Shown: one piece after another, positions 1,014 through 21,940 of the stretch
How positions within the stretch are numbered: position 1 is the stretch's first letter
Layout: every line of letters starts with the position of its first letter
Assembly (NCBI GenBank): GCA_903828055.1
Contig: CAIKKP010000057.1
Span: 17,588 to 81,587, forward strand
Reading direction: 5' to 3'
From: an uncultured bacterium
Lineage (GTDB): Bacteria; Patescibacteriota; Andersenbacteria; UBA10190; CAIZMI01
DNA: 64,000 nucleotides
Made by a program: the position numbers and the translations under genes
The notes under the pieces: model-generated
Database searches by the model: none
What the model saw: only the letters and a program-made list of their open reading frames with translations
Told to the model about the DNA's origin: nothing

Positions 1014-1516
1014 TCCCGGGTAGCTCAATGGCAGAGCAACTGGCTGTTCACTCTGAGCTTGTCGAAGAGTCGGCAAGGTAGAGAGTCGGCAGCTTTACTC
1101 CGTAAGGAGTATCGAAGAACTGGGTGAATTCGGAGAACGCCTCCATTTAAGAACTTCTTTTGCCCGTCGCACATTGTGCGAACGCAGCAATCTCCCGTTG
1201 TTTTTAAATCGGCCAACCCCGAGCCGTGCCTTTGTTAAAAGGAAAGAGGACAGACAAACTGGTTCCGTTGGAACTGGAAGGCCTGCCCTCCGTAGCCTTG
1301 GCGAAGGAGGGTGTAGAGACTATCTCGCAAGAGAGTACTCCGCGTGCAAACGCGGCGGAAGCGCCTAGCTCCATCAACAACGTCTTTGCGAGCCATCATC
1401 TGCAGATGAGGCGAAGCAATCTCGACGTTGAGCGGAGATGATATAGTCCACTCCATTATGAAAATAATGGGTCAAGTGTAACCAGTAGGTTGTCGGTTCG
1501 AGTCCGACCCCGGGAG
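1014..1516 (+). tRNA. Intron-containing tRNA, most likely tRNA-Asn(GUU); exons 1014-1047 and 1479-1516 separated by a 431-nt insertion in the anticodon loop
   Basis: 5-prime exon: TCCCGGG (acceptor), TA, GCTC (D-stem), D-loop, GAGC, A, ACTGG (anticodon stem), CUGU. 3-prime exon: UAA, CCAGT (anticodon stem), AGGTT (variable), GTCGG-TTCGAGT-CCGAC (T-arm), CCCGGGA (acceptor), G (discriminator). The joined loop CUGUUAA gives anticodon GUU. An alternative splice junction would give UGU. Confidence 0.7.
1048..1478 (+). other. Putative group I self-splicing intron in the tRNA anticodon loop (no homing-endonuclease ORF)
   Basis: The insertion starts after the U that closes the 5-prime exon and ends on G1478 (candidate omega-G). 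Candidate P7 strands are GACTA (about 1319) and TAGTC (about 1445). A P9-like hairpin CCATTATG-aaa-ATAATGG lies just before the 3-prime end. GGCAGC (1087-1092) could act as an internal guide pairing with GCUGU of the 5-prime exon. Confidence 0.5.
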
Positions 1517-1557: not shown

Positions 1558-1697
1558 ATCTTCCCAGGAGCAAACAACTGCTTGTTTGTGTGTTGGACTC
1601 GAAGCGCGCAGCGATGTTTTTGTTTGTCCGAAGGACAAGGCAAAAACCGCGAGCGGCGGCCTGCGAGAAATTTCCGTCAGGAAATTTACTTGTAGGC

Positions 1698-1775
1698 GAG
1701 TCCGACCCCGGGAGCTAACGAAAAATACCGCTAAACATGGCGGTATTTTTGTATACCAAGGTCGGGGTTTCGAAC
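1698..1775 (+). repeat. Cassette-array repeat unit U0 (3-prime part only): second copy of the tRNA 3-prime end + terminator + GTCGGGGTTTCGAAC core
   Basis: GAGTCCGACCCCGGGAGC duplicates the tRNA T-stem/acceptor 3-prime end. It is followed by the AAAATACCGC-taaacatg-GCGGTATTTT terminator and by GTATACCAAGGTCGGGGTTTCGAAC, as in units U1-U4. Confidence 0.75.
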
Positions 1776-1803
1776 CAATAAATCACATTAATTATAAACC
1801 GCG

Positions 1804-4883: not shown

Positions 4884-4932
4884 TAGCAATGTGTTCGTAT
4901 TTCACAAAATTTAGAGCATCCAAAGACATCTG

Positions 4933-5081
4933 AACAATAGTGTAGTCAGGGGTGGGGTAAACCGATTTTCTTGGTAAAACTCATCATTCTGGTTCGGTAG
5001 TCCACCGACCCTCGGAGCCGCATCTTAAATAATCGCTAATAATCGCGGTTATTTTTGTATACCAAAGTCGGGGTTTCGAAC
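4933..5081 (+). repeat. Cassette-array repeat unit U1 (full: 5-prime motif + tRNA-3-prime-end-like segment + terminator + GTCGGGGTTTCGAAC)
   Basis: Contains AACAATAGTGTAGTCAGGGGTGGGGTAAAC, then ATTCTGGTTCGGTAGTCCACCGACCCTCGGAGC, the AATAATCGC/GCGGTTATT terminator, and GTATACCAAAGTCGGGGTTTCGAAC. Confidence 0.8.
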
Positions 5082-5130
5082 TGATAATAAATTGGAACTA
5101 TATACAAAATTGTGTTTTAATTAAGTAATC

Positions 5131-5874
5131 ATGAACATCAAACAACAATTCACAACAGTCACACGATTATCAAAAATCGTGGCATCAATATTATTTATTG
5201 CGTTGCCGTTTATTGGTTTTTATTTGGGGATGAAGTATGAAGAATCTATTTTAGCTTATCAGCCGACTATTATTGTTACTCCACAATCCAGAGAATTATC
5301 TCAGTCGCAAGTTGCTCCAATAGATTCGGAAAAACAGAGACAAACTGAAATTGACACTACGGAATGGAAAACTTTAAAAAACAAGTTTGGTTGGAGTATT
5401 AAATATCCACCAACGTGGGAGGCCTCAGGCCAGCACAATGTTATTGCTGAAGACTTTGTTGCACCAATTATCCAAGGACCAAAAGGTTGTTATAAGAATA
5501 AAGCAGAATGTGGAAGCATTCAGGTTGATGTACCATCGGCTATGACAGACATTTATAAAAATGTGTCGCCTAGTCAATACGAACTAGAAAAGTTTAAAAA
5601 TGCCCCGTTCCAAATATTAAAAAATCAAAATGAATCATTAGTCAATGGTAACCCTGCATTCGAAGTGACATATTTGATTAGTAATGATGGTCAATTTCCA
5701 AATGGAAGATATGTTAAGGAAATAGCAATCAAACATAAAGAAGATATTTACGTAATTAGTTATGACGCAGGATCTAATGATTCTTCGGGTAGAGGAATTA
5801 CGGGTTTACCAGAGGATTGGCAGCTTGCTCCTGTTTTTGGGAAAATGCTCTCAACATTGAAATTTTCAGAATAG
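5131..5874 (+). CDS. Hypothetical N-terminally membrane-anchored protein (cassette gene)
   Basis: 247-aa ORF with one N-terminal TM segment; no recognisable family. Confidence 0.6.
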   Translation: MNIKQQFTTVTRLSKIVASILFIALPFIGFYLGMKYEESILAYQPTIIVTPQSRELSQSQVAPIDSEKQRQTEIDTTEWKTLKNKFGWSIKYPPTWEASGQHNVIAEDFVAPIIQGPKGCYKNKAECGSIQVDVPSAMTDIYKNVSPSQYELEKFKNAPFQILKNQNESLVNGNPAFEVTYLISNDGQFPNGRYVKEIAIKHKEDIYVISYDAGSNDSSGRGITGLPEDWQLAPVFGKMLSTLKFSE

Positions 5875-5897
5875 TATTACTATCAATAATTGTGAAA

Positions 5898-6041
5898 ACA
5901 ATAGTGTAGTCAGGGGTAGGGTAAACAAACATGCTTGTTTATAGGCATCATTCTGGTTCGGTAGTCCACTGACCCTCGGAGCATCTGAAATAATCGCTAT
6001 AATTAGCGGTTATTTTTGTATACCCAGGTCGGCCATCGAAC
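5898..6041 (+). repeat. Cassette-array repeat unit U2 (full)
   Basis: Same architecture as U1 (GGGGTAGGG variant; 3-prime core GGTCGGCCATCGAAC). Confidence 0.8.
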
Positions 6042-6132
6042 CAAAATATGGCAGTATTGACATTTTGATTAATTACAATTATAATTCAGTGTTCTTTGTT
6101 GCCTTGTTACCTCAAAATGAAGAGGAAGAAAA

Positions 6133-6489
6133 ATGCCTCAAAAAGTAAGGTTTTGTGTCGACTGCCTAAGCGACGTCGGGGTTAACGCTGTCATTAGTGC
6201 TTTGGGAGAAATGTCTGGTGACAAGTACTGTCCGGGTTTAATGAAGAAAGACGTTAAGAGGCGCAGCGATCGAAAATTGGAGTACAGAGTTAAGTCACAA
6301 CAGGGAATGGTTGATTCTGTCGAACTAGAAGAAGCAAATCCTTGGCGCGTGACTGTCGAAGGTGATGTACAAGCAGTTCGACGTTTCGCAGGGCTAGTCT
6401 GTTTCGTTTGCGGTCCAGAGTATGTGGTGCAGTATGATGGCACCGAGACAACTGCACTACAAGCGTCTCTTCCGGCTGCTACCTCCTGA
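6133..6489 (+). CDS. Hypothetical Cys-rich protein (GC-rich cassette gene)
   Basis: 118-aa ORF with RBS GAAGAGGAAG and its own terminator; roughly 50% GC against a roughly 38% background. Confidence 0.55.
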   Translation: MPQKVRFCVDCLSDVGVNAVISALGEMSGDKYCPGLMKKDVKRRSDRKLEYRVKSQQGMVDSVELEEANPWRVTVEGDVQAVRRFAGLVCFVCGPEYVVQYDGTETTALQASLPAATS

Positions 6490-6512
6490 GACAGAATTGT
6501 CCTGTCCATGCT

Positions 6513-6541
6513 CTCCGACCTCGCAAGGGGTCGGTTTTTTG
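6513..6541 (+). terminator. Rho-independent terminator
   Basis: CCGACC-tcgcaa-GGGGTCGG followed by T6. Confidence 0.7.
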
Positions 6542-6558
6542 TTTACGAAAAATTTCTA

Positions 6559-6703
6559 AACAATAGTGCAGTCAGTGGCGGGGTAACGTAATCTTCTTCT
6601 TAGAATCCATAATTCTGGTTCGGTAGTCCACCGACCCTCGGAGCATCTTAAATAATCGCTAACTACAGCGGTTATTTTTGTATATCCAAGTCGACCATTG
6701 AAC
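6559..6703 (+). repeat. Cassette-array repeat unit U3 (full)
   Basis: AACAATAGTGCAGTCAGTGGCGGGGTAAC … TTCTGGTTCGGTAGTCCACCGACCCTCGGAGC … terminator … GTCGACCATTGAAC. Confidence 0.8.
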
Positions 6704-6770
6704 TAGAGTATTTGTTTTATATCCTGTTGGCTGAATTGATACTAAAAGAAATATCTGACATAATTATTTC

Positions 6771-7229
6771 ATGGAACGAAATGCAAATGGTATTCAGCCT
6801 AGGCCATCCGTTGGCTTGGGAATTTATATATTCAATGAAGAAGGTAAAGTCCTGTTAGGTAAAAGAAAAAGTTCGCATGGGTCAGGTGAATATGCGGCTC
6901 CCGGTGGGCACTTGGAATTTGGAGAATCCTTTGAAGAAGGTTGTAAAAAAGAGGTTAAGGAAGAGACTGATCTAGATATTAGAGAAATTGAATTTTTTGA
7001 TGTTCAAAACAATCTTCGTTATGTAGAAACCAAAGGAAAACATTACGTGACCCTATCATTCAAGGCGCATTTTTTTAGTGGAACACCAAAAGTAACTGAA
7101 CCCGAAAAGTGTGAGTCTTGGGATTGGTATTCTTTGGACGCTTTACCTTCCCCTTTATCTGAGTTTGCTGAGGTTGCATTAGCTAAATTGAGGAGTGGAA
7201 TAGTTGGCGAACCTCATTCAAATTTGTAG
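6771..7229 (+). CDS. NUDIX hydrolase
   Basis: Nudix box GGHLEFGESFEEGCKKEVKEETDL. Confidence 0.85.
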   Translation: MERNANGIQPRPSVGLGIYIFNEEGKVLLGKRKSSHGSGEYAAPGGHLEFGESFEEGCKKEVKEETDLDIREIEFFDVQNNLRYVETKGKHYVTLSFKAHFFSGTPKVTEPEKCESWDWYSLDALPSPLSEFAEVALAKLRSGIVGEPHSNL

Positions 7230-7242
7230 ATATTATTCCCAA

Positions 7243-7389
7243 ACAATAGTGTAGTCAGGGGGGGGTAAACATACGATTCTCTTCTGTGTGCTCATTATTC
7301 TGGTTCGGTAGAGCACCGACCCTCGGAGCATCTGAAATAATCGCTAACTACAGCGGTTATTTTTGTATACAAAAGTTGGGGTTTCGAAC
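7243..7389 (+). repeat. Cassette-array repeat unit U4 (full; G9 run replaces GGGGTGGGG)
   Basis: AACAATAGTGTAGTCAGGGGGGGGGTAAAC … GGTTCGGTAGAGCACCGACCCTCGGAGC … terminator … GTTGGGGTTTCGAAC. Confidence 0.8.
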
Positions 7390-7433
7390 CAGGAATTAAG
7401 ACATTTTTAACAAGATTTTGTCATAATTTTAAT

Positions 7434-7462
7434 TTGACAAGAACTGTCACTTGTGCTATCAT
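7434..7462 (+). promoter_or_regulatory. Sigma-70-like promoter (TTGACA, 17 bp, TATCAT) for the GC-rich two-gene cassette
   Basis: Consensus -35 with a near-consensus -10 at ideal spacing, about 110 nt upstream of the 7573 start. Confidence 0.5.
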
Positions 7463-7572
7463 TCTATGTTCACTATGCAGGTTTTCTGCATCGTGCAACG
7501 GGTTCTTTTCACAAGGAAAACTCAGGCTTGATGTTTTCCAGGCACGCGTTTCAATGAAAGGAGCGCAGGATC

Positions 7573-8157
7573 ATGGCTCAAGGCAAACGAGTCAAAGGCT
7601 TTGTCGTAGGTCACGACAAAAAAGGTCAGATGGAAGTCTGGAAGGTGCGAGTGAAAGACCAGTCTTCTCATCATGATGGAAGTAAGTTCGAGGTTGCATC
7701 CGTGCATCCAGGAGTCGAACTGAAACCGTCAACCGACGTCACGTTTCGAATCGAACCCCTTCAGGTCGAAGGTGAGTTTGTGCTGAAAGCCGTTGATGTC
7801 GCCACTGGAACGGTTACTACCGAACCCAGTCGGCAGCCAGTGCGGAGCAAGTCGGAAGGATCACCCACGATGTTCGTGTGTGTGACCGAAATGGTCAGTA
7901 CTGGTGACGTTAATGTGTTTCTTACAGGATTTGAGGACATCCAAGAGGCTCGATCGCAAATCGATGAGACAACAGAGCGCGTGCTCGGGTTGCTCGGAAT
8001 TGATCTGCAACCGCCGCATCTTGGTTCTGAAGAACTGACAGGTCTCGAAATCATCGAACGTTTGTCCTGGGTGGACACCACGCGCGATGCGATTGAGTAT
8101 TTGTTAGCAGAGGTCTTCAAGTTCGGCCAGACAATCTCCGAAATGAAGGGTCAATGA
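7573..8157 (+). CDS. Hypothetical protein (GC-rich, likely foreign)
   Basis: 194-aa ORF with RBS AAAGGAG; roughly 55% GC; translationally coupled (ATGA) to the next ORF. Confidence 0.6.
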   Translation: MAQGKRVKGFVVGHDKKGQMEVWKVRVKDQSSHHDGSKFEVASVHPGVELKPSTDVTFRIEPLQVEGEFVLKAVDVATGTVTTEPSRQPVRSKSEGSPTMFVCVTEMVSTGDVNVFLTGFEDIQEARSQIDETTERVLGLLGIDLQPPHLGSEELTGLEIIERLSWVDTTRDAIEYLLAEVFKFGQTISEMKGQ

Positions 8158-8909
8158 AAATGAAGGCATGTGTGATCTATCGTAATAACGATCTGTTCGC
8201 TCAGTACGTCGACGCGATTCTGAAAGGGCATGAGGTCTCCGTGCGATACGTAATCCCAGCAGGGGAAGCGTTCGGCGACCACGAAAACGCCATCCTTGAG
8301 GATCTGGCGCGCGCTCTGGCTAACCAAGCGAAAGTGTTGTTCGTCGACTCCACTTGCGGTGATGTGGATCGGGAAGGAAGGATGATCCATATTGATTTGG
8401 ACGGGCTCTTTCAGAGCCAGATTGAGAAGCGTCACCCCAACAACACCGTCGAAGACAACTTCGCGTGGTATGCGCGGCAAGTGGTTGGGGAACGACAAGT
8501 CAAGAAGGTCATCGTCGTCCTTAATCAAATCGCCGACCATGGTTTTGTGGGAAGCAATTCGGGGCCGTCCCGAGGCAATGCTGCTGAGTGGGTCATCAAG
8601 CAGTTGCACGATTTATTTCCGGGTGTTCGGGTTCTGACGATCGCAACGCTTGCGGAAACATTGAAGCAGGCAGAGGATCCCGAGACACTGATCGTTCTTG
8701 ATCGCCATTGTGGAATCAAGGAAGAGATGCCCAATAAGGAGGGTTGGTATCACGCGGCACACAACTGGCTTCACCAGTCGATGCTGTACATCCTGCCTTT
8801 CGAAACTTGCGCATCCCAACTGGCTTCCTGCGGAAAGTGTGCTGAAGCGTTTGATGTCGAGGAAATGCGAAGTGCAGTACAAAAACGCATTGATCGGGTC
8901 AGACGTTAA
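8154..8909 (+). CDS. Hypothetical protein (GC-rich, likely foreign)
   Basis: 251-aa ORF; overlaps the previous stop (ATGA); followed by a strong terminator. Confidence 0.6.
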   Translation: MKMKACVIYRNNDLFAQYVDAILKGHEVSVRYVIPAGEAFGDHENAILEDLARALANQAKVLFVDSTCGDVDREGRMIHIDLDGLFQSQIEKRHPNNTVEDNFAWYARQVVGERQVKKVIVVLNQIADHGFVGSNSGPSRGNAAEWVIKQLHDLFPGVRVLTIATLAETLKQAEDPETLIVLDRHCGIKEEMPNKEGWYHAAHNWLHQSMLYILPFETCASQLASCGKCAEAFDVEEMRSAVQKRIDRVRR

Positions 8910-8944
8910 ACGCAGAGACGATTGAAAAGTGCAGAATTTCTGCC

Positions 8945-8977
8945 CGCCGATACTTCCAAGTGTCGGCGATTTTTTTG
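8945..8977 (+). terminator. Rho-independent terminator
   Basis: CGCCGA-tacttccaagtg-TCGGCG followed by T7. Confidence 0.75.
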
Positions 8978-9000
8978 TTTGAAAAATATCTATTTCTGTA

Positions 9001-9060
9001 GGTAAACATGTCGCGTGTAGAACGGTATTTTGGTTCGAACTTTCTCCGTTCCGGCGAGCC
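9001..9060 (+). repeat. Cassette-array repeat unit U5 (truncated G/H-type variant)
   Basis: GGTAAACATGTCGCGTGTAGAACGGTATTTTGGTTCGAACTTTCTCCGTTCCGGCGAGCC. It matches the 5-prime half of U6 but lacks the terminator and 3-prime core. Confidence 0.6.
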
Positions 9061-9119
9061 CTATCGGATTGCCCCTTCTTGAGATGATGAGATTATAGGG
9101 TTTTAATTATGAGTATCCT

Positions 9120-9174
9120 ATTACGTGGAACCATAATCCACGTAATTGACTTATTACGTGGATTATGATAGAAT
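9120..9174 (+). promoter_or_regulatory. Promoter with palindromic operator (ATTACGTGGA-n7-TCCACGTAAT plus a third half-site) upstream of the AAA ATPase gene
   Basis: Perfect 10-bp inverted repeat at 9120-9129/9137-9146; -35 TTGACT (9146-9151); third ATTACGTGGAT copy in the spacer; -10 TAGAAT (9169-9174), 17-bp spacing. Confidence 0.5.
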
Positions 9175-9183
9175 GTAATTACT

Positions 9184-10320
9184 ATGAATATTCCTCGTTT
9201 TTATCACGATTTAAGCAAGTATATTGAGCCGAATAAAGCATTAATTATTTATGGTCCGCGTCGTGTCGGCAAAACAACACTGCTTAATGAATACTTAAAG
9301 CAAAGCGGGCTAAAATATAAATTGGATTCAGGAGATAATATCAAGATCGCGGAAACACTTTCATCACAGAATTTTGACCTACTTAAAGAATACGCTTCCG
9401 GATACGAACTGATCGCGATTGATGAAGCGCAAAAAATACCAAACGTTGGTATGGGTTTGAAAATACTGGTTGATCAAATTCCTAATATTAAAATAATCGC
9501 TACCGGGTCCTCTTCGTTTGAACTTTCAGGACAAGTTGGTGAACCACTTACGGGAAGAAAAACCACCCTTACGCTTTTTCCAATTTCTCAAACGGAACTT
9601 GGAAATCAAAATAATGATTTTGAGTTGAAAGAAAAGTTATCCGAACGGTTGATATTCGGTTCATATCCGGAAGTGGTAACGGCGAGTATGAAGGAAGAAA
9701 GAACTTTAAAGTTGGAAGAACTCGCACACTCATATTTGCTGAAAGATATTTTGCAAATGGAGAGAGTTAAGGGTTCAAAAGTTTTACTTGATTTATTGCG
9801 TTTGATTGCGTTTCAAGTGGGCAACGAGGTTTCTTTGGCAGAAATTGGATCGCAAATCGGTTTAGACAGCAAAACCGTTGCGCGATATTTAGACTTATTG
9901 GAAAAATCATTTGTGCTTTATAACTTACGGGGTTTTAGTAAGAACTTGCGCAAAGAAATTACGAAGAAAAGTAAGTATTATTTTTATGACAACGGTATTA
10001 GAAACGCGATAATTTCCAATTTCAATGATCTTTCTTCGCGTGATGATGTTGGTGCGCTTTGGGAAAATTTTATGGTAATTGAACGGATAAAAAGAAATGC
10101 TTATGGGAAAGTGTATGCCAATAGTTATTTCTGGCGCACATGGGAAGGGCAAGAGGTCGATTTCGTAGAAGAGCGTGATGGCAAGCTTTTTGGCTACGAA
10201 TTAAAATGGAGTGAAAAAAGTAGAGACAATAATAAGAAGGCTTGGCTTGAGGCATATAAAGAAGCGACTTTTGAAGTGATAAATCCTAAAAATTTCTTGG
10301 ACTTCGTTAGGCTTTCATAG
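9184..10320 (+). CDS. AAA-family ATPase (DUF4143-type)
   Basis: Walker A GPRRVGKTT, Walker B LIAIDEAQ; C-terminal DUF4143-like region. Confidence 0.8.
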   Translation: MNIPRFYHDLSKYIEPNKALIIYGPRRVGKTTLLNEYLKQSGLKYKLDSGDNIKIAETLSSQNFDLLKEYASGYELIAIDEAQKIPNVGMGLKILVDQIPNIKIIATGSSSFELSGQVGEPLTGRKTTLTLFPISQTELGNQNNDFELKEKLSERLIFGSYPEVVTASMKEERTLKLEELAHSYLLKDILQMERVKGSKVLLDLLRLIAFQVGNEVSLAEIGSQIGLDSKTVARYLDLLEKSFVLYNLRGFSKNLRKEITKKSKYYFYDNGIRNAIISNFNDLSSRDDVGALWENFMVIERIKRNAYGKVYANSYFWRTWEGQEVDFVEERDGKLFGYELKWSEKSRDNNKKAWLEAYKEATFEVINPKNFLDFVRLS

Positions 10321-10349
10321 GAAGTGAAATCAATCGAGATCTTTTTGCA

Positions 10350-10552
10350 GGTAAACATGTCGTGAATAGAACGGAATCATTGTTCGAACTTTCTTCGTTC
10401 CGGCGAGCCGCGTAAAAAGATTGCCGAGCAATCTTCACGCGGCCACGTGGGACGTGAGCGCACGCATGCGCTTTTACGTCCTTTACATGGCTGAACAAAT
10501 AATACCGCTAATCATGGCGATATTTTTGTGGAGGGAAGTCGGGTGGCGAACC
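10350..10552 (+). repeat. Cassette-array repeat unit U6 (variant with GC-rich palindromic insert)
   Basis: GGTAAACATGTCGTGAATAGAACGG…TTGTTCGAACTTTCTTCGTTCCGGCGAGCC…; AAATAATACCGC-taatcatg-GCGATATTTTT terminator; GTGGAGGGAAGTCGGGTGGCGAACC core. Confidence 0.7.
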
Positions 10553-10555
10553 ATC

Positions 10556-11137
10556 ATGTATAATCAGTTTATGGAAAATAATTTACTTAAAGTTAAAGAA
10601 GGAATCACGACTATTATTAAAGAATCTCCGATTGCTTCAGATGTTGAACATGCTGAGCGGACGTTAAAATGGTTGCTGGTATTAAAACCTAATGCTGACG
10701 ATGCACTTCAGGTTGCGGCCTACGGGCATGATATTGATAGGGGTGTAACAAAAATAACTAATAAGGATTTGGCGGATATGAAGGATTACGATAAAGATCG
10801 CAAAGAACATTCAGAAAGATCCGCGAGATTTCTTGCGGAATTACTGGTGAAGAATGGACTAAGTAGTGCTTTTATTCAAAAAGTTAAGGCACTTGTTGAA
10901 AAGCATGAGGTTGGAGGAGACGAAGAATCCGATATTCTTAGAGACGCGGATAGTATTGCCTATTTTGACTACAATATTCCTCTTTACCTTCAAAGAAACG
11001 GGGAAGAAAAAGGCAGATATAAAATTAACTACATGTACGATCGCGCATCCGAAGGCGCAAAAATAATAATAAAAACATTAAAGTTTGATGATGAAAACAT
11101 TCAAAAGATTGTCAATGAAGAATTGAACAAGAAATGA
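10556..11137 (+). CDS. HD-domain phosphohydrolase
   Basis: HD motif (AAYGHDIDRG). The ATG at 10556 was chosen because the longer ORF would run into repeat U6. The stop overlaps the next gene's start (ATGA). Confidence 0.7.
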   Translation: MYNQFMENNLLKVKEGITTIIKESPIASDVEHAERTLKWLLVLKPNADDALQVAAYGHDIDRGVTKITNKDLADMKDYDKDRKEHSERSARFLAELLVKNGLSSAFIQKVKALVEKHEVGGDEESDILRDADSIAYFDYNIPLYLQRNGEEKGRYKINYMYDRASEGAKIIIKTLKFDDENIQKIVNEELNKK

Positions 11138-12087
11138 CACCCCTCGATAGAATAAAATACTCAGGAAATATCGATGAATTGATTCATAAAATTTCTGACA
11201 TACACAATGTCGGACACGTAAATAATTTTTCCATTATCGAAACTGGCTATGAGGACTGCAATGTTGTTATTGAAACCAATGAAGGAAAATATTTAACGAA
11301 AATATTTTCGAAAAACCGTAGCAAGGAAGATGTTTTGCGCTATAGCATGATAATGGAGAAGGCGGTTGACGCTGGCGTTAATCATCCAGCCCTTATCAAA
11401 ACACGAGAAGGGGCTTGGGTTGGTCAGGCTGTTGAAGATGTTTTTGAGGTGTTAATGAATTACGTTGATGGAAAAACATTCTATCAATCAGGTTCTATGC
11501 CCAACAAAGAAGAACTTAATGTTGTTCTAGAACAAGCAGCAAAGATTAATAGAATAGACCACCATCCAAAGTATTTATTTGATTCATGGGCTATTTCAAA
11601 TATTCAATCGATGTATGAACGCATAAGGCAATATATTAAGCCAGATGATGCCCAGCTTATTGTGAAGGCAATTGATAATTATTTAAAAATTCCAGTAGCA
11701 GATTTGCCTCATTGTTTTGTGCATGGGGATTTTACTAAAGCCAATGTGTTGAAGGGGAATGATAGCAAAATCTATATTTTGGATTTTTCCGTTTCAAATT
11801 GGTACCCAAGAATGCAGGAACTTGCCGTGATTGCGGCCAATCTTTTACATGACGAAAAACATACTTCGTCCTTGCGTGAAAGATGTGATTTGGTTTATAC
11901 GAATTATAACTTGTTGAACCCACTCACAAAATTAGAGCATGACAATTTGTTTACTTACTCTGTTGCGGGATTAGCAATGGAACTTCTAGGTTCATACCAG
12001 GAGCGATTTATTAATGGCAATGATAATGAAGAAACACGCTTTTGGTATAATCTTGGTCGTGAAGGCTTGCGAGAGGCACTTAATTAA
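11134..12087 (+). CDS. Aminoglycoside/choline-kinase-type phosphotransferase (APH family)
   Basis: Brenner motif VHGDFTKANVL and IYILDFS; protein-kinase-like fold. Confidence 0.75.
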   Translation: MTPLDRIKYSGNIDELIHKISDIHNVGHVNNFSIIETGYEDCNVVIETNEGKYLTKIFSKNRSKEDVLRYSMIMEKAVDAGVNHPALIKTREGAWVGQAVEDVFEVLMNYVDGKTFYQSGSMPNKEELNVVLEQAAKINRIDHHPKYLFDSWAISNIQSMYERIRQYIKPDDAQLIVKAIDNYLKIPVADLPHCFVHGDFTKANVLKGNDSKIYILDFSVSNWYPRMQELAVIAANLLHDEKHTSSLRERCDLVYTNYNLLNPLTKLEHDNLFTYSVAGLAMELLGSYQERFINGNDNEETRFWYNLGREGLREALN

Positions 12088-12093
12088 GTTCAA

Positions 12094-12317
12094 AACAATA
12101 GTGTAGTCAGGGGTGGGTAACCAAACATTCTTCTTCATGAGCATTATTCTGGTTCGGTCCTTCGACACGGCAGGATGAGTACTTCGACTGCGCTCAGCAC
12201 AAGTAGTCCACCGACCCTCGCTACGCCCCGAAGCGAACTTTGTTCTGCTTCGGGGGAGCTAACAAAAAATACCGCTAATCATGGAGATATTTTTGTGGAG
12301 GAGAGTTGGATTCCGAA
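12094..12317 (+). repeat. Cassette-array repeat unit U7 (long form with extra hairpin CCGAAGC…GCTTCGG)
   Basis: 5-prime motif, then GGTTCGGTCCTTCGACAC…GTAGTCCACCGACCCTCGCTACGCCCCGAAGCGAACTTTGTTCTGCTTCGGGGGAGC, terminator, and GTGGAGGAGAGTTGGATTCCGAAC. Confidence 0.8.
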
Positions 12318-12393
12318 CTGAGGCCATTTTTCGCTGTTCGTACTTCAGTGAGTCGGAATGAGGGAAAACTAGTGATAGGTGTACAATTTGACT

Positions 12394-12912
12394 ATGCCAA
12401 AAGTATTAATTGTTACTGGTCCGGGCGGTGCTGGCAAAACAACAATCGCTCAGATGGTCGCGGAGAGATGTGGTTCTATTTATCTGGATGCCGATAGTGA
12501 AGATACAGAGTTTTTTCCTGATGGTGGCCAGTGGTTGCCAGAGAATTCAGAAAAACTAAAAAAAGCGCATGAAAAAATTCTCAATAAGACGAGCGAACTG
12601 ATTGAAAAAGGACACAGTGTTGTTGTTGACTATATTATTTTTGGTCGGTACGCCGAGTTTTTTGATATGTTTCGTAGTCGATTTGGAAGTGGCCTGCTAA
12701 TTAAGGTTCTTTTTCCAACAGAAGCGGTTACCGTTAAGCGGGATAAGGAACGAGATTGTTGGACAACCGGGGAGGAGAGAATAAAAGCTGTTTCTGGAGA
12801 ACTTTGGGATGTAAAAGAAATTGTAGGTAAAGAAAATTTCATAGATACTTCAAATCAGTCCTCTGAGGAAACGTTTAACAAATATTTCTCTAATTGTTTC
12901 AAAGCACCCTGA
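12394..12912 (+). CDS. P-loop kinase (AAA_33 / chloramphenicol-phosphotransferase-like)
   Basis: Walker A VTGPGGAGKTT at the N-terminus; small nucleotide-kinase fold. Confidence 0.65.
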   Translation: MPKVLIVTGPGGAGKTTIAQMVAERCGSIYLDADSEDTEFFPDGGQWLPENSEKLKKAHEKILNKTSELIEKGHSVVVDYIIFGRYAEFFDMFRSRFGSGLLIKVLFPTEAVTVKRDKERDCWTTGEERIKAVSGELWDVKEIVGKENFIDTSNQSSEETFNKYFSNCFKAP

Positions 12913-12914
12913 TT

Positions 12915-13841
12915 ATGTCTAAAAAAGGCAATGCCATCATCGAGTTAGCAGAAAAAAAGATACATGGTTCGATTAAAGACATTACTCAGGTTATTAATAA
13001 AGGCCATATGAATGAAGTTTATCTAGTTAAAACAGATAGACAAAATGTCATATTAAGGGTTAACGAACCATCAAGTTTTGAAAGGTTTAAAAAAGAATGT
13101 TGGTGTGCTGAGGAGGCAGCATTAATGGGTGTTCATACTCCAAAAGCGTTGGAAGTGGGTATTGGTGGTGAACATTCTTTTATTCTATTTGACTACATTG
13201 AAGGAAAGAATGGTGCTGAAATAGTTCAATCTCAAGACTTGTGGTACCAACTGGGTATACAGTTGAAAAAAATACACAATATCAGTGTCAATGGTTTTGG
13301 AGAAGAACTAAGCGATATTAGAAGTGGAAATTTTGATGAATGGAAAAAATATATCGACTACAATATTAATTCGTTAAACAAAGGCGATCAACTTCGTAAA
13401 AGAGGGGTTCTGAATGATGAAAATTCTGCGAAGATACAAAGTTTGCTTAGTTCGTTGCTTGATAAAAAATTCAATTTTGGGTTGTCGCATGGAGATTATT
13501 CATTGGCAAACGTAATTGTTGATAATCGTTCAGTACCAAATATTATTGATTGGGGATGCGCGCAAGCCCACGTAGTACCAGATTACGACTTCGGAATAAT
13601 TATCGATGAAAGTGTTGGAGAAAATACCGAATATTTTAAAGCGTTGTTGAACGGATATGGTATGACAGAATCTGATTATTTAGATATCAAGAATGAAATT
13701 ATGGTTTTGCAGTTGTTGGTTGCATTAGATAAGCTTCGGTGGGCGATGGACAAGAATACCAAACGCATTGAATTTTACGTGGCGCAGGTAACCAAGTTTG
13801 TTAAAAAAAACAACAGTGTAGTCAGAGGCGGGGTAAACTGA
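12915..13841 (+). CDS. Aminoglycoside-phosphotransferase-family kinase (second APH-like cassette gene)
   Basis: SHGDYSLANVIV and IIDWGCA motifs. The C-terminus (…NNSVVRGGVN*) is encoded by a read-through copy of the 30-nt repeat motif (TAG changed to CAG). Confidence 0.75.
   Translation: MSKKGNAIIELAEKKIHGSIKDITQVINKGHMNEVYLVKTDRQNVILRVNEPSSFERFKKECWCAEEAALMGVHTPKALEVGIGGEHSFILFDYIEGKNGAEIVQSQDLWYQLGIQLKKIHNISVNGFGEELSDIRSGNFDEWKKYIDYNINSLNKGDQLRKRGVLNDENSAKIQSLLSSLLDKKFNFGLSHGDYSLANVIVDNRSVPNIIDWGCAQAHVVPDYDFGIIIDESVGENTEYFKALLNGYGMTESDYLDIKNEIMVLQLLVALDKLRWAMDKNTKRIEFYVAQVTKFVKKNNSVVRGGVN
13809..13838 (+). repeat. Repeat 5-prime motif alone (U8), translated as the gene's C-terminus
   Basis: AACAACAGTGTAGTCAGAGGCGGGGTAAAC; no terminator or 3-prime core follows. 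Confidence 0.7.
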
Positions 13842-13922
13842 TTTTCATTTTAATTAGTGCAATTTCATATGCATACACGCGGGGCGTAGACGTCAGAACG
13901 TTTCGTTGTTAAAATCCGCTTA

Positions 13923-15017
13923 ATGGCCACCGAATTTATAAAAGGAATTGAGTTAAGCAGACGGTTTTGTCAAGAAATAGTTAAACCAATCCTTGATTCT
14001 GAGTTTCTGGGATTAAAATATTCTTCGGCCCTTATTGGTTGGGGGTCAGAAGTGTTGGGTTATGATACTGAAATTTCCAGAGATCACCACTGGGGTCCTC
14101 GGTTATTGATTTTATTGAATGAAGAAGATTTTGTGGAATTAAAGGAAAAAATATCTCAAAAGTTATCTGAAAAACTTCCATATGAATTCATGGGCTATTC
14201 CACCAACTTTTCAAATGCAAAAGAACACGGTGTAAGAAGTGCAGAAAAAATAATCAGTGGCCCAGTAAATCACATGATTGAATTTTTTACTATCAAATCC
14301 CTTTGGTTAATGCGTTTGGGTTTTGACCCATATCAAGAGATTTTAAACCATGATTGGTTATCATTTCCTCAACAGAGATTGCTTGCTTTAACAAGTGGCG
14401 AAGTATATTTCGATGGATTAGGTGAATTGGAAGAAGTAAGAAATAAATTTCACTATTATCCCAATGAAGTTTGGCTCTATCTTTTGGCATCGCAGTGGAC
14501 AAAAATCGCACAAGAGCAAGCATTTGTCGGGCGTACAGGTGATGTTGGGGACGAATTGGGATCCCGCGTAGGGGCTTCTCGGCTGGTGCGAGAAATAATG
14601 AAATTGTGTTTCTTGATGGAGAAGAAATATTATCCTTATACCAAGTGGTTCGGCACCGCTTTTGAAAATTTGAATATTGCACCAGTTTTGTCACCAATAT
14701 TATCTCGCGTGTTTTTAGCGACTTCGTGGAAGGAAAGAGAAAAGTATCTTTCTGAAGCATATAAAGTGATTGCGATAGCACATAACTTATTAAAAATAAC
14801 TAAGCCATTATCTACGGAAGTTTCTCTCTATCACGAAAGACCATATTTGGTCATAAGTGCCGATGAATTTGTGAAAGCCATAATTACTGAAATCAAGGAA
14901 GAATCACTAAAAAAACTTCCCGTGATTGGTTCCATTGATCAATTTGTTGATAGCACTGATGTTTTAGATGAACCATTGTTGTGCAGGAAATTGAAGACAG
15001 TGTACGAGAATCCATAG
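13923..15017 (+). CDS. Hypothetical protein (possibly DUF4037-like)
   Basis: 364-aa ORF; family assignment is from memory only. Confidence 0.55.
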   Translation: MATEFIKGIELSRRFCQEIVKPILDSEFLGLKYSSALIGWGSEVLGYDTEISRDHHWGPRLLILLNEEDFVELKEKISQKLSEKLPYEFMGYSTNFSNAKEHGVRSAEKIISGPVNHMIEFFTIKSLWLMRLGFDPYQEILNHDWLSFPQQRLLALTSGEVYFDGLGELEEVRNKFHYYPNEVWLYLLASQWTKIAQEQAFVGRTGDVGDELGSRVGASRLVREIMKLCFLMEKKYYPYTKWFGTAFENLNIAPVLSPILSRVFLATSWKEREKYLSEAYKVIAIAHNLLKITKPLSTEVSLYHERPYLVISADEFVKAIITEIKEESLKKLPVIGSIDQFVDSTDVLDEPLLCRKLKTVYENP

Positions 15018-15029
15018 TATTCAAATTTT

Positions 15030-15434
15030 ATGAACGAAACAACACCATACTCACAACTAATAAAACCATCATGGGCTCCGCCGGGCTGGGTTATTGGGCC
15101 GGCATGGACGGTGCTCTATGCAATTATTGTCGTTTCTTTCGGTACTATTTTTTATAAAGCATTCACCAAGCAAATTCCGTGGGTGGTGGCTCTCCCTTTT
15201 GCACTCAATCTTGTTTTTAACTTTGTCTTTGCGCCAATACAATTCCGCTTGGTAAATAATTTTCTCGCATCGATCGACATCTTGCTCGTCGTCGGCACGC
15301 TCATCTGGGCGCTCTGTGCTGTCTGGCACGCTTCACCTGAGCTCCGCTGGGTGGTCTACGCCAACATTCCATATCTTCTGTGGGGAACATTTGCAACTTG
15401 TGTGCAATTAACAATAACTTATTTAAATAGGTGA
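15030..15434 (+). CDS. TspO/MBR-family tryptophan-rich membrane protein
   Basis: KPSWAPPGWVIGPAWTVLY motif and five TM helices. Confidence 0.7.
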   Translation: MNETTPYSQLIKPSWAPPGWVIGPAWTVLYAIIVVSFGTIFYKAFTKQIPWVVALPFALNLVFNFVFAPIQFRLVNNFLASIDILLVVGTLIWALCAVWHASPELRWVVYANIPYLLWGTFATCVQLTITYLNR

Positions 15435-15551
15435 TGATTAATTTTAGATTTTGTTGGTTTATTTGTCATCATTTACGGATTTGGCCGATGAGTACATTGG
15501 TGGATGGCTAAAATGGCCGGAGAGTGAAAATATCGATGCTATCATTCTGAC

Positions 15552-15875
15552 ATGGGCATTGTTGTTTTTTTGAGACAATTCAAAATTGGACCGTTTGCTG
15601 TTTTCGATTTTGTATTAGCATATATTGGAGTATTTTTTATTGCTCTACTTTTAACAAAGTTGTTTTTAAGACTTAATCTTAAAATTTCACGAGAATCGTG
15701 GCTCTGGTTGACCTTGCCAATATCGGTGTTGTTTCATGCAGTTTTTCAGCAAAACACGCCTTTAATGAAGATTCTATTGAACCCAAATGGTTTTTATGTG
15801 GAAAAGGCGGTATTAATATTTATGCTTTTTATGGGATTGAGAAAGATTCGCTTAGTTAAGGTCGCGAAACAATAG
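15552..15875 (+). CDS. Small hypothetical membrane protein
   Basis: 107 aa, three TM helices; the stop codon is the first TAG of the repeat motif. Confidence 0.5.
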   Translation: MGIVVFLRQFKIGPFAVFDFVLAYIGVFFIALLLTKLFLRLNLKISRESWLWLTLPISVLFHAVFQQNTPLMKILLNPNGFYVEKAVLIFMLFMGLRKIRLVKVAKQ

Positions 15876-15897
15876 TATCGTCAGGGGTGGGGTAAAG
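15868..15897 (+). repeat. Repeat 5-prime motif alone (U9)
   Basis: AACAATAGTATCGTCAGGGGTGGGGTAAAG. Confidence 0.7.
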
Positions 15898-15923
15898 TGA
15901 TTATTTCTGTATAATGTGAACAT

Positions 15924-16475
15924 ATGGCAGATGAATTAATCGATATTGTTGATGAGAACAATAACCTCATTGGTGTCCAGAAGATGAAAAGTGAGGCGCA
16001 TCGGGATGGTTTGTGGCATAGAACGGCGCATCTTTGGTTATATAACTCAAAAGGTGAAATTCTGCTTCAGTTGCGAGCGAAGAATAAAAAGTTGTATCCA
16101 GCATTATGGGATGTTTCCGCGGCTGGTCATATTGGTGCTGGTGAAGAGCCTATTGTCTCCGCGCTAAGAGAAGCGGATGAAGAAATTGGTATTCAACTCA
16201 GAAAGGATCAACTAGATTTCTTTAAAACAAGAAAGGTCATGGCAGTTTATCGAGAAATAAAAAACAATGAATTTTGCTATGTATATTTGGCAAAATATGA
16301 TGGCGGCGCTAAGAATCTAAGGTTGCAGAAGGAAGAAGTGGAAGAAATTAAATTTGTTTCACTTGTTGAATTGGAAGCTAATTTGCGCGAAAAATCGGAA
16401 CATTATGTTCGACATGGGAAATATTGGGATGATGTTATTGCGGAAATCAAAAGAAGGGTATTGATTAAACAATAG
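15924..16475 (+). CDS. NUDIX hydrolase
   Basis: Nudix box GHIGAGEEPIVSALREADEEIGI; the stop codon lies inside the repeat motif. Confidence 0.8.
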   Translation: MADELIDIVDENNNLIGVQKMKSEAHRDGLWHRTAHLWLYNSKGEILLQLRAKNKKLYPALWDVSAAGHIGAGEEPIVSALREADEEIGIQLRKDQLDFFKTRKVMAVYREIKNNEFCYVYLAKYDGGAKNLRLQKEEVEEIKFVSLVELEANLREKSEHYVRHGKYWDDVIAEIKRRVLIKQ

Positions 16476-16700
16476 TGTAGTCAGGGGTGGGGTAAACATA
16501 CATGCTTCTTCATAAGCACAATTCTGGTTCGGTCCTTCGACACAGCTCAGGATAAATACTTCGACGCGGCTCAACATAAATAGTCCACCGACCCTCGCTA
16601 CGTCCCGAAGCGAGCTTTGTTCTGCTTCGGGGGGGGGGGGGGCTAACAAAAAATACCGCTAATCATGGCGGTATTTTTGTGGAGGGGAGTCGGATGCCAA
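16468..16700 (+). repeat. Cassette-array repeat unit U10 (long form; contains a G14 homopolymer)
   Basis: Near-identical to U7; G14 run at 16629-16642; terminator; GTGGAGGGGAGTCGGATGCCAAATTGG. Confidence 0.8.
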
Positions 16701-16740
16701 ATTGGTAGACTAGTTTCCGTTGAGAGCATATTATAAAAAA

Positions 16741-17136
16741 ATGATTACAAAAGAAAAAGTAAAGGAAATAATAGAAATATATAGTGAAGCATGGAAAAAC
16801 CAGGGTGTCGAACAGATATTGACGATCTTTACAAAGGACGCAAAATATCAAGAAGGTTTTTTATCTGAACCAATGGTTGGACACGAGGAGATTAGAAAAT
16901 ATTGGAACAAAAAGGTTGTCCTTGAGCAGAAAAGTATTCAATTCAAACTAGTTAGAATAATGATTGATGGTAATGATTGTTTGGTGGAATGGCACGCTGA
17001 GTTTGATGATCTAGTTTCGGGAGAGCATGTAAAAATGGTTGAAGTCGCATTTCTTGAATTTTTGGGCGATATGGTTTCATCTTTGCGAGAAAATTGGGAT
17101 ACGATCAGAATACCAATCGCTCAAAAAATAGTGTAA
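16741..17136 (+). CDS. SnoaL/NTF2-like (ketosteroid-isomerase-fold) protein
   Basis: About 130 aa with an NTF2-like pattern; the stop TAA falls in the GTGTAATCAGG variant of the repeat motif. Confidence 0.55.
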   Translation: MITKEKVKEIIEIYSEAWKNQGVEQILTIFTKDAKYQEGFLSEPMVGHEEIRKYWNKKVVLEQKSIQFKLVRIMIDGNDCLVEWHAEFDDLVSGEHVKMVEVAFLEFLGDMVSSLRENWDTIRIPIAQKIV

Positions 17137-17154
17137 TCAGGGGTGGGGTAAAAC
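17124..17154 (+). repeat. Repeat 5-prime motif alone (U11); last recognisable unit of the array
   Basis: AAAAATAGTGTAATCAGGGGTGGGGTAAAAC. Confidence 0.7.
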
Positions 17155-17215
17155 AGGCACCAATAAACGTAAAATAATTGGTTGCGTAGATATTGAAAGT
17201 TGATATAGTAAACTA

Positions 17216-17743: not shown

Positions 17744-17746
17744 ATA

Positions 17747-18337: not shown

Positions 18338-18347
18338 GAAAAATAAT

Positions 18348-19025: not shown

Positions 19026-19104
19026 GGCGGTTATTTTTGTAAAATTTAAGTTAGGGTAAATATGAAAAAGTGGTTAGGTCCTAATTTTTATTCTTTGTTG
19101 TATA

Positions 19105-21867: not shown

Positions 21868-21940
21868 ACGTTGTGGATATTGTTAATTAAACAATGGTGT
21901 AGGCAAAAGTTTGGTAATATAATTTTCTAAAATTATTTCA

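Follow-up and report, generated by a model that had tools for sequence, protein, structure and literature searches.

Introduction

Group I introns of subgroup IA that interrupt tRNA-Asn genes between nucleotides 35 and 36 have already been published from Patescibacteria, as the Asn.4Ug class (Williams, 2020, 10.1101/2020.01.27.920355; Nakagawa et al., 2026, mSystems, PMC13011429). Twenty-five of the 28 introns at position 35/36 were assigned to subgroup IA, and no Patescibacteria tRNA intron was assigned to IC (PMC13011429). For one homologue, in GCA_016700035.1, self-splicing at 35/36 was demonstrated in vitro with an omega-G to C control (PMC13011429).

Bacterial introns of subgroup IC3 are found in tRNA-Leu(UAA) at 34/35 (cyanobacterial), tRNA-fMet at 33/34, tRNA-Arg(CCU) (Agrobacterium) and tRNA-Ile(CAU) at 36/37 (Azoarcus). 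Phage-type IA introns, such as those of T4 td and nrdB, lie in protein-coding genes, often with GIY-YIG or HNH genes in other loops, and have P7.1/P7.2 helices between P7 and P3'.

We analysed a 64,000-nucleotide stretch of DNA (the window), in which positions 1014-1516 are, with high confidence, a Patescibacteria tRNA-Asn(GUU) gene in which a 431-nt group I intron of IA-like architecture separates U35 from U36 of the anticodon. With the Asn.4Ug class this copy has in common the host phylum, the host tRNA and the 35/36 position, the U-1/omega-G rule, a P1 made of CUGU with GCAG, the core blocks GGUGAAUU, AGAGACUA and GAUAUAGUCC, and a characteristic miscall by ARAGORN as Thr(UGU) at 33/34. It differs from that class in its extra length, which is due to four hairpin expansions (in L1, P5, P6 and P8) rather than to an ORF; at 431 nt, it falls between the introns in our sample that lack a homing-endonuclease gene (HEG; 214-335 nt) and those that carry an HNH gene (540-596 nt). 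Core identity to 68 other members is 54-68%, the intron sequence was not found in the searched part of the PMC13011429 supplement, and the window copy is a new, divergent member of the tRNA-Asn 35/36 class.

Like the IC3 introns, the window intron is of the self-splicing-ribozyme type, sits in the anticodon loop of a bacterial tRNA and draws on loop bases for its P1, usually without an ORF; the IC3 introns differ from it in insertion position and host tRNA, and lack its two hairpins between P7 and P3'. Those hairpins are where the phage-type IA introns have P7.1/P7.2, although the window intron is not in a protein-coding gene and has no endonuclease gene in its loops. At the level of the motif, 87 IMG/VR viral contigs contain AGAGACTATC...GAAGCGCC of the core, and a blastn search of 1000-1530 against a phage collection gave no match.

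Results

The tRNA locus

The tRNA lies just downstream of rpoD. The best full-length relatives of the encoded RpoD come from Ca. Andersenbacteria and other Patescibacteria metagenome-assembled genomes, at 66-68% identity; judged by such sequence relationships, the host is a Patescibacterium nearest to Ca. Andersenbacteria. The rpoD-tRNA-Asn arrangement is found in 31 related loci, 22 of them intron-less and nine intron-bearing. The parts of the gene, all on the + strand, are as follows.

1014-1047, +: tRNA-Asn 5' exon, nucleotides 1-35 (acceptor 5' strand, D arm, anticodon stem 5' strand, loop C32 U33 G34 U35); from the sequence, ARAGORN on spliced and unspliced forms, and identity to an intron-less orthologue
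1479-1516, +: tRNA-Asn 3' exon (U36 A37 A38, anticodon stem 3' strand, variable loop, T arm, acceptor 3' strand, discriminator G1516); from the sequence, ARAGORN and the same orthologue
1014-1020 with 1509-1515, +: acceptor stem, read from the sequence
1023-1037, +: D arm, read from the sequence
1039-1043 (ACTGG) with 1482-1486 (CCAGT), +: anticodon stem, read from the sequence
1492-1508, +: T arm GTCGG-TTCGAGT-CCGAC, read from the sequence
1521-1560, +: intrinsic-terminator-like hairpin and T run immediately behind the tRNA (stem 1534-1546, then CTTTTATTTT)

C32 U33 G34 U35 correspond to 1044-1047 and U36 A37 A38 to 1479-1481. Taking out 1048-1478 (431 nt) leaves the loop CUGUUAA, and ARAGORN calls the hand-spliced sequence tRNA-Asn(GUU). 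CCA is not encoded after the 3' exon, where the DNA reads on as CAG, so that only its first C (C1517) is present.

The splice junction is fixed by a related species (locus L053) that has the same tRNA-Asn(GUU) gene without an intron. Its sequence is identical at 73 of 73 nucleotides to 1014-1047 joined to 1479-1517; the gene lies downstream of rpoD, from which an unrelated gene separates it, and the RpoD proteins are 97% identical over the 197 C-terminal residues present on its contig (80% for the DNA). Because this intron-less orthologue equals the spliced product, it establishes both the 1047|1479 junction and the Asn identity. Mature tRNAs are likewise identical within a second set of loci with and without the intron (L014 and L027 with; L015, L038 and L048 without) and within a third (L037 with; L034 without). 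The last base of the 5' exon is thus U1047 and the last base of the intron is G1478 (omega-G). We also considered a junction shifted by one base (1049-1479), which gives the same mature tRNA, and rejected it since the intron would then have U instead of G as its last base. The original prediction, which had proposed a complete cloverleaf outside the insert, a probable Asn(GUU) identity, an intron placed in the anticodon loop, and an exon-final U with an insert-final G, is borne out on each of these points.

In its intron mode, which had been suggested as a check, ARAGORN did find an intron-bearing tRNA, but reported it as Thr(tgt) i(33,431), that is, a tRNA-Thr(UGU) with an intron at 33/34 (1046-1476). 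This registration, too, gives an exon-final U (1045) and an intron-final G (1476). Nonetheless, it has almost no chance of being correct: the intron-less orthologue, which matches the 35/36 product over 73 nt, has the loop CTGTTAA and not CTTGTAA, and the U1-A72 pair and G73 agree with the tRNA-Asn genes of the 22 related loci that lack the intron. Moreover, the same two-base miscall by ARAGORN/tFind has been documented, with position 35/36 confirmed by sequencing of spliced products (PMC13011429). The pairing within P1 points the same way. In the covariance-model alignment, P1 consists of 1044-1048 with 1088-1092, and contains a wobble pair between U1047 (U35) and G1089; U33 forms a Watson-Crick pair with A1091, and the conserved U·G wobble is made by U35. 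We re-derived P1 across the family from the exon ends, since the model cannot bridge the 330-nt ORF of HEG-bearing introns and so mis-registers P1 in alignment A2. The exon CUGU/GCAG pairing is kept in nearly all of the 67 distinct members examined, and in 61 of the 67 the first intron base is paired with the nucleotide immediately 5' of GCAG (GC in 38, CG in 10, AU in nine, GU in three and UG in one). Covariation of the pair beside CUGU/GCAG puts the U·G wobble at U35 and not at U33; we therefore retain the Asn(GUU) registration, with the ARAGORN call being a mis-registration by two bases.

The insert is a group I intron

Default scans of the window are blind to this gene: ARAGORN in its default mode reported no tRNAs, and Rfam at gathering thresholds gave no match in the window to any family. 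The latter is explained by the score of RF00028, which aligns with the insert over its full length at 44.1 bits (E = 8.3e-10), below its gathering score of 50. About 215 nt of insertions in the loops accompany this shortfall; for comparison, cut-offs of 18-20 bits were applied to tRNA-embedded introns by Williams (2020, 10.1101/2020.01.27.920355). A family covariance model (R1), built from 24 short homologous introns with the window copy left out, has a sole match in the 64-kb window, at 1041-1480, which is full length and scores 140.1 bits (E = 1.5e-44). A covariance-model scan had been named as the test of group I identity; the insert matches both models over their full length, with RF00028 scoring under its gathering threshold, and 1048-1478 is a group I intron.

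The structural elements of the intron, all on the + strand, are as follows.

1048-1478, +: group I intron, 431 nt, with IA-like hairpins in the P7.1/P7.2 position and omega-G at 1478 (RF00028, R1, counts of pairs and invariant positions)
1044-1092, +: P1, C1044-U1047 and U1048 with the internal guide G1088-G1092 (covariance-model alignment, family pairing)
1049-1087, +: L1 hairpin insert, 39 nt (L1 fold)
1096-1111, +: P2 hairpin UACUCC-GUAA-GGAGUA with a GNRA loop (all six pairs covary across the family)
1120-1126, +: P3 5' strand, partner 1362-1368 (family covariation, alignment)
1362-1368, +: P3 3' strand CGCCUAG (family covariation, alignment)
1130-1135 with 1217-1222, +: P4, one A·C mismatch (covariance-model alignment, fold)
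1139-1141 with 1211-1213, +: P5, with a 69-nt hairpin extension at 1142-1210 (covariance-model alignment, fold)
1223-1225 and 1229-1231 with 1305-1307 and 1310-1312, +: P6/P6a, with a 73-nt extension at 1232-1304 (covariance-model alignment, fold)
1318-1322, +: putative P7 5' strand GACUA of the guanosine-binding helix (family-invariant; RF00028 consensus AGACUA...GAUAUAGUC)
1444-1448, +: putative P7 3' strand UAGUC, inside the conserved GAUGAUAUAGUCC (RF00028 and family alignment)
1323-1334, +: hairpin UCUC-GCAA-GAGA in the P7.1/P7.2 position (4-pair helix, 97% paired in the family)
1338-1357, +: hairpin in the P7.1/P7.2 position with a GCAA loop and one U·C mismatch (7-pair helix, covarying at seven of seven pairs)
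1369-1437, +: P8, 1369-1373 with 1433-1437, and a 59-nt extension (covariance-model alignment, fold)
1453-1470, +: P9 hairpin with a GAAA loop (RF00028 and family alignment)

In the window copy, 51 of the 54 modelled pairs are canonical, leaving three mismatches in the core, and 73 of the 76 near-invariant family positions are retained; P1, P7, J8/7 and omega-G are all intact. The A-rich internal loop of P6, which is usually invariant, is changed at 1226, 1227 and 1309. Across 68 distinct members of the family, 95.2% of cells hold standard pairs (72% when shuffled and 37-47% when slid), a level somewhat inflated by the fitting of the alignment to the model, although the slid and shuffled controls argue that this is not the main cause. 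The covariation score for the same members is 0.612, as against 0.186 for shuffled and 0.11 or less for slid alignments, and compensatory changes are found at 41 of the 54 pairs.

Both the P7 and the P9 candidates of the original prediction lie where the RF00028 and family-model alignments put these helices. The P7 strands sit in the family-invariant blocks AGAGACUA and GAUAUAGUCC; the helix itself is invariant, such that covariation is silent on its pairing, and we infer from the conserved sequence that 1318-1322 would pair with 1444-1448. The two hairpins in the P7.1/P7.2 position suggest that the intron belongs to subgroup IA.

The roughly 215 nt of extra sequence lie in L1, P5, P6 and P8, and the insertions fold as self-contained hairpins at loop tips. 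A hairpin repeat within the P8 extension, at 1382-1422, also occurs at 878-921. We considered whether it might be a dispersed element, but there are only two copies, at most 550 nt apart, and none in the loci examined from other organisms.

That the insert is some other kind of element altogether (an IS or MITE, an IStron, a group II intron or an archaeal-type intron spliced by proteins) is barely conceivable. The recurrence of the P8 hairpin repeat 500 nt upstream means that part of the insert may have a history of its own. By contrast, the group I model matches over the full length of the insert, and no other Rfam family was matched in the window; no ORF encodes a transposase, TnpB or a reverse transcriptase, we saw neither a better non-group-I match nor terminal inverted repeats flanked by target-site duplications at 1047/1479, and the position is 35/36 rather than 37/38.

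Absence of an endonuclease gene

The longest Met-initiated sense ORF within the intron is 11 aa, and the five ORFs overlapping it (58-73 aa) gave no match in Pfam, in keeping with the earlier observation that no homing-endonuclease ORF is to be seen. In long relatives, L1 contains a gene for an HNH-like protein of some 105 aa, which scores 20.2-20.3 bits with PF01844 (cut-off 21.4), and the relatives that we collected range from HNH-bearing introns through internally deleted HEG remnants to HEG-free forms. Since it has no homing-endonuclease gene, the window intron is probably immobile.

A proposed route to the mature tRNA

We propose that the precursor would be transcribed and that the intron would fold into its P3-P9 core. 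C32-U35 would pair with the internal guide GCAG (1089-1092) to form P1, with U35 (1047) wobbling with G1089. A free guanosine, bound in P7, would attack the bond after U1047; G1478 would next occupy the guanosine site in P7, and the freed 3'-OH of U35 would attack after G1478, joining U35 to U36 and restoring the loop CUGUUAA. RNase P, 3' trimming and CCA addition would then complete the tRNA.

Given that the core is conserved and that a homologue has been spliced in vitro in published work, we infer that the window copy splices. The validated intron of GCA_016700035.1 matches the profile of the window-intron family from end to end (nhmmer, E = 1.7e-37). An alternative possibility is that the intron is in decay and no longer able to splice, which would make the locus a tRNA pseudogene, with the cell using another tRNA-Asn gene. 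The R1 score of 140 bits is low for the family (most members score 170-235), three invariant bases of the P6 loop have been lost, there are four large peripheral insertions, and there is no HEG. We nevertheless regard decay as very improbable. All core helices are kept, with mismatches at three of 54 pairs, and P1, P7, J8/7 and omega-G are intact; the insertions are at loop tips, which often accommodate extensions in group I introns; and the exons are 100% identical to those of an orthologue that looks functional. In addition, Patescibacteria genomes mostly have one tRNA-Asn according to the counts in the consulted part of the supplement, and it is rare for a genome to combine copies with and without an intron for a single anticodon (PMC13011429). 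A splicing-competent intron thus remains our preferred reading of the window copy.

The tRNA 3' end and a downstream gene array

The original prediction had also regarded the tRNA as an attB-like anchor for a cassette array further downstream. This array, at about 4.9-22 kb, consists of small accessory enzyme genes on one strand that are bounded by repeats; its unit of about 160 nt comprises Box A (AACAATAGTGTAGTCAGGGGTGGGGTAAAC), Box B, Box C, a terminator and a tail. Two features between the tRNA and the array bear on the proposal.

1697-1715, +: exact copy of the tRNA 3' end, 19 of 19 nt (equal to 1499-1517) (repeat search, families D5, D6 and D15)
1721-1750, +: second terminator, followed by the tail GTATACCAAGGTCGGGGTTTCGAAC, within 1697-1780 (both common to the repeat units of the downstream array)

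The 19-nt copy is a direct repeat, 198 nt downstream of the tRNA 3' end, and the terminator and tail follow it as they do at the array units, which counts in favour of the proposal. Box C of the units (AGTCCACCGACCCTCGGAGC) looks like a tRNA-Asn 3' end, its acceptor strand CCTCGGA matching that of other Patescibacteria, and the array genes are of an accessory kind and on one strand, all of which would fit a tRNA-Asn 3' end that serves, or once served, as a site-specific recombination site anchoring the array. Other observations count against it. The roughly 50 ORFs scanned across the 64 kb gave no integrase or recombinase domain; znuABC and fur sit between the tRNA and the first full unit; and the other contigs in which one of the array genes occurs all have the same gene order, with every contig carrying the NUDIX gene having the same neighbours, although a look-up by exact protein identity samples near-identical strains only. 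We also tried two known identities for the units. They are not tRNA-like genes, since permissive ARAGORN yielded scattered noise and there was no Rfam match, and they do not appear to be integron attC sites, with no RYYYAAC/GTTRRRY cores seen by eye. We consider it doubtful that the tRNA-Asn 3' end acts or acted as such an anchor.

The resemblance to known systems is partial. As in tRNA-anchored islands and integron cassette arrays, there is a direct repeat of a tRNA 3' end, and small accessory genes on one strand are each followed by a conserved repeat unit. Unlike islands and integrons, the window array has no detected integrase or IntI, no attC R''/R' cores, a terminator within its units, and no observed variation between contigs, these being from near-identical strains. 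A more specific version, in which the array would be integron-like and made of single-gene cassettes, each closed by one of the units, and would have been founded by recombination at the tRNA-Asn 3' end, with Box C mimicking that end and no integrase visible, is improbable in our estimation. If it were true, the intron-bearing tRNA would both host a ribozyme and provide the attachment point for a gene-capture system of a new kind.

Discussion

The window copy leaves the known working of tRNA-Asn 35/36 introns unchanged, and adds to them a divergent, HEG-less and expanded member from an Andersenbacteria-related lineage. Given that a related species has an identical tRNA minus the intron, gain or loss of the intron has left the exons unaltered in sequence.

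Published work on Patescibacteria has already raised the problem that such introns pose for completeness estimates and annotation. The window copy would be an instance of it: default ARAGORN and Rfam gathering thresholds are both blind to the gene, and the intron mode of ARAGORN misnames the amino acid, such that a genome of this kind would be scored either as lacking tRNA-Asn or as bearing a spurious tRNA-Thr.

A split tRNA-Asn gene interrupted by a group I intron

The 431-nt insert at 1048-1478 is very probably a group I intron lodged between nucleotides 35 and 36 of tRNA-Asn(GUU), whose exons lie at 1014-1047 and 1479-1516. The original prediction had proposed a complete cloverleaf with an insert in its anticodon loop, and the pairing of the stems in the sequence bears this out:

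1014-1020 / 1509-1515, + strand, acceptor stem TCCCGGG / CCCGGGA
1023-1037, + strand, D arm
1039-1043 / 1482-1486, + strand, anticodon stem ACTGG / CCAGT
1492-1508, + strand, T arm GTCGG-TTCGAGT-CCGAC
1516, + strand, discriminator G

Deleting 1048-1478 reproduces the predicted loop CUGUUAA, and ARAGORN identifies the hand-spliced DNA as tRNA-Asn(GUU). Only the first C of the CCA end is encoded in the window. Routine annotation passes over the gene: ARAGORN in default mode reports no tRNAs in the 64-kb window, and Rfam gives no matches there at gathering thresholds. The group I model RF00028 aligns along its full length to 1053-1470 in E-value mode (E 8.3e-10), but at 44.1 bits it falls below the gathering score of 50; ARAGORN in intron mode finds the split gene, but calls it Thr(UGU) and sets the intron at 33/34, too far upstream by two bases.

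Intron-less orthologues and the splice junction

The 3' part of rpoD (18-830) lies upstream of the tRNA, and fur (minus strand) and znuABC lie downstream (ORF/domain scan). Several metagenome contigs carry identical DNA, in which the tRNA is preceded by dnaG and a 451-aa rpoD. Compared with GTDB species representatives, this 451-aa RpoD has its best relatives in Patescibacteria, with Ca. Andersenbacteria MAGs providing the closest full-length proteins (66-68% identity). Major-vault-protein domains, unexpected in a Patescibacterium, were also seen in a 574-aa ORF at 45358-47082 on the + strand (MVP_shoulder, E 1.9e-19; Vault_3, E 3.8e-14).

Among 84 loci searched with ARAGORN, 31 related loci have tRNA-Asn near rpoD, almost always downstream and on the same strand; nine carry the intron and 22 do not. 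The locus L053 is the most informative comparison, with rpoD DNA 80% identical to that of the window and an RpoD 97% identical across the 197 C-terminal residues on its contig. Its intron-less tRNA-Asn(GUU) (L053:1919-1993), separated from rpoD by an unrelated gene, encodes CCA and is identical at 73/73 nt to window positions 1014-1047 plus 1479-1517. Similarly, the mature sequence is the same in intron-containing L014 and L027 as in intron-less L015, L038 and L048, and the same in intron-containing L037 as in intron-less L034. Because intron-less alleles have the identical spliced sequence, the mature loop is CUGUUAA, which rules out the tRNA-Thr(UGU) 33/34 reading. An intron shifted by one base, to 1049-1479, would yield an identical product but end in U.

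We derived P1 from the true exon ends rather than from the model alignment, because the covariance model described below cannot bridge L1 loops that contain an ORF. Across 67 distinct introns, the exon-terminal CUGU almost always pairs with a conserved GCAG immediately 5' to P2, and intron base 1 is paired in 61 of them with the nucleotide preceding that GCAG (GC 38, CG 10, AU 9, GU 3, UG 1). These pairings, with their covarying neighbour, place U35 in a U·G wobble and pair U33 with A; this register agrees with the intron-less allele. The wobble in the window is U1047·G1089 and omega-G is present, consistent with the group I splice rules invoked in the original prediction.

A conserved fold with unusual expansions

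Homologous introns were sampled by scanning metagenomes for the core motif AGAGACTATC-N15-45-GAAGCGCC, which yielded at least 120 loci and favours introns that share the P7 to P3' sequence of the window. Over all loci plus the window, at least 87 split tRNAs were called by ARAGORN in its intron mode, at least 72 of which fit Asn 35/36; among the loci listed, 69 Asn calls remain once three contigs identical to the window are removed. The other split tRNAs with the core motif among these loci are 11 Phe, two Asp, one Tyr and one His:

tRNA-Phe(GAA): L105, L119, L126, L137, L141, L151, L171, L176, L180, L199, L200
tRNA-Asp(GUC): L123, L143
tRNA-Tyr(GUA): L150
tRNA-His(GUG): L191

The His(GUG) call may represent a site absent from the available text of Williams (2020) and Nakagawa et al. 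(2026). The core motif also occurs in 87 viral contigs from IMG/VR (L205-L291), which may represent copies carried by phages or CPR contigs that were misclassified; one of them has an intron-split tRNA-Asn of the same family (L280:1217-1530).

The fold predicted by RNAalifold from an alignment of 24 short members has 54 pairs, of which 38 show compensatory changes, forming P1, P2, P3, P4, P5, P6/6a, P7.1 and P7.2 hairpins between P7 and P3', P8 and P9. The covariance model built from this alignment matches the window once, at 1041-1480 (140.1 bits, E 1.5e-44). In the alignment of 69 introns, 95.2% of cells form pairs, versus 72% after shuffling and 37-47% with partners slid, and the covariation score is 0.612, versus 0.186 after shuffling. 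Fitting this alignment to the model biases these values towards the structure, but they still exceed the slid controls by a wide margin. The window intron has canonical bases at 51/54 modelled pairs and retains 73/76 near-invariant positions, with all three exceptions in the P6 internal loop.

Intron lengths among the members listed are bimodal: 214-335 nt without an ORF, and 540-596 nt mostly with an ORF of ~105 aa in L1. This HNH-like ORF (PF01844, 20.2-20.3 bits versus a cut-off of 21.4) is found in L005, L007, L011, L027, L040 and about 20 metagenome loci, and internally deleted remnants persist in L023, L037 and L039. In most copies, the guide sequence ACGCAGCUU overlaps the final codons of the ORF (..T Q L P), and hence the same bases serve both protein coding and P1 pairing. 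Sense ORFs in the window intron do not exceed 11 aa, and Pfam gave no match for the ORFs that overlap it, in line with the predicted absence of a homing-endonuclease ORF. Relative to the model, it is expanded in L1 (38 nt versus 7) and in the P5 (+58), P6 (+65) and P8 (+54) loops, with all four insertions folding as self-contained hairpins. The P8 insertion holds GTCTTTGCGAGCCATC-[stem-loop]-GGCGAAGCAATCT (1382-1422), a second copy of which lies in the rpoD-tRNA spacer (878-921) with identical flanks and a different middle, both middles being self-complementary; we found no further copies in the window, and none in other organisms' loci.

The window contains the exons, the junction, P1 with its U·G wobble and omega-G, and the conserved core is intact. 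We propose that the precursor would self-splice by the standard two-step guanosine-initiated pathway, joining U35 to U36, and that end processing and CCA addition would follow; CCA addition is invoked because the first C alone is encoded. This copy is likely splicing-competent, a prediction we make less firmly than the intron assignment because the P6 loop is altered and the expansions are large.

The downstream array

The original prediction also cast the tRNA as an attB-like anchor of a downstream cassette array. The array itself is real. Box A (AACAATAGTGTAGTCAGGGGTGGGGTAAAC) occurs ten times between 4.9 and 22 kb (4933, 5897, 6559, 7242, 12094, 13809, 15868, 16468, 17124 and 21890; array span 4925-22000), each copy abutting or overlapping the stop codon of the same-strand upstream gene. 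Full units extend Box A with Box B (ATTCTGGTTCGGT) and Box C (AGTCCACCGACCCTCGGAGC) as well as a terminator and conserved tail (GTATACCAAGGTCGGGGTTTCGAAC), and the genes encode small accessory enzymes (NUDIX, APH, SnoaL, TspO, methyltransferase and others). One unit contains a run of ~14 G (16629-16644) in place of the GGGGG of its sister unit at 12252; this may reflect an assembly artefact or a tract prone to slippage.

The resemblance to the tRNA 3' end is also real: the 19 nt at 1499-1517 recur without a change 198 nt downstream, within 1697-1780, and are followed there by a second terminator and the tail, as at unit ends. This segment may be a partial unit or the remnant of an old duplication of an att site. 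Against an anchor, about 50 ORFs scanned in the window include no recombinase domain, the units have no Rfam match and are not tRNA-like in permissive ARAGORN searches, and gene order is unchanged in all other contigs matched by exact protein identity to an array gene. We regard a recombination role for the tRNA 3' end as a hypothesis.

Relation to the published class

The original reading of the split tRNA and its intron was correct; the class has already been described. Williams (2020; bioRxiv 10.1101/2020.01.27.920355) increased the types of bacterial tRNA known to be interrupted from 4 to 21. Nakagawa et al. (2026; mSystems, PMC13011429) assign nearly all Patescibacteria tRNA introns of this class to subgroup IA, describe HNH genes in some tRNA-Asn copies, note that ARAGORN and tFind call tRNA-Asn 35/36 introns Thr(UGU) 33/34, and report precise self-splicing in vitro, with an omega-G to C control. 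Our family profile matches their validated intron over its whole length (nhmmer E 1.7e-37), and the available part of their supplement contains no match to the window intron. Core identity between the window intron and any other member listed is 54-68%. We therefore place the window intron in a published class, as a new and divergent member. Its significance is modest, and lies in an annotation blind spot, a divergent and expanded member, and a related species that lacks the intron.
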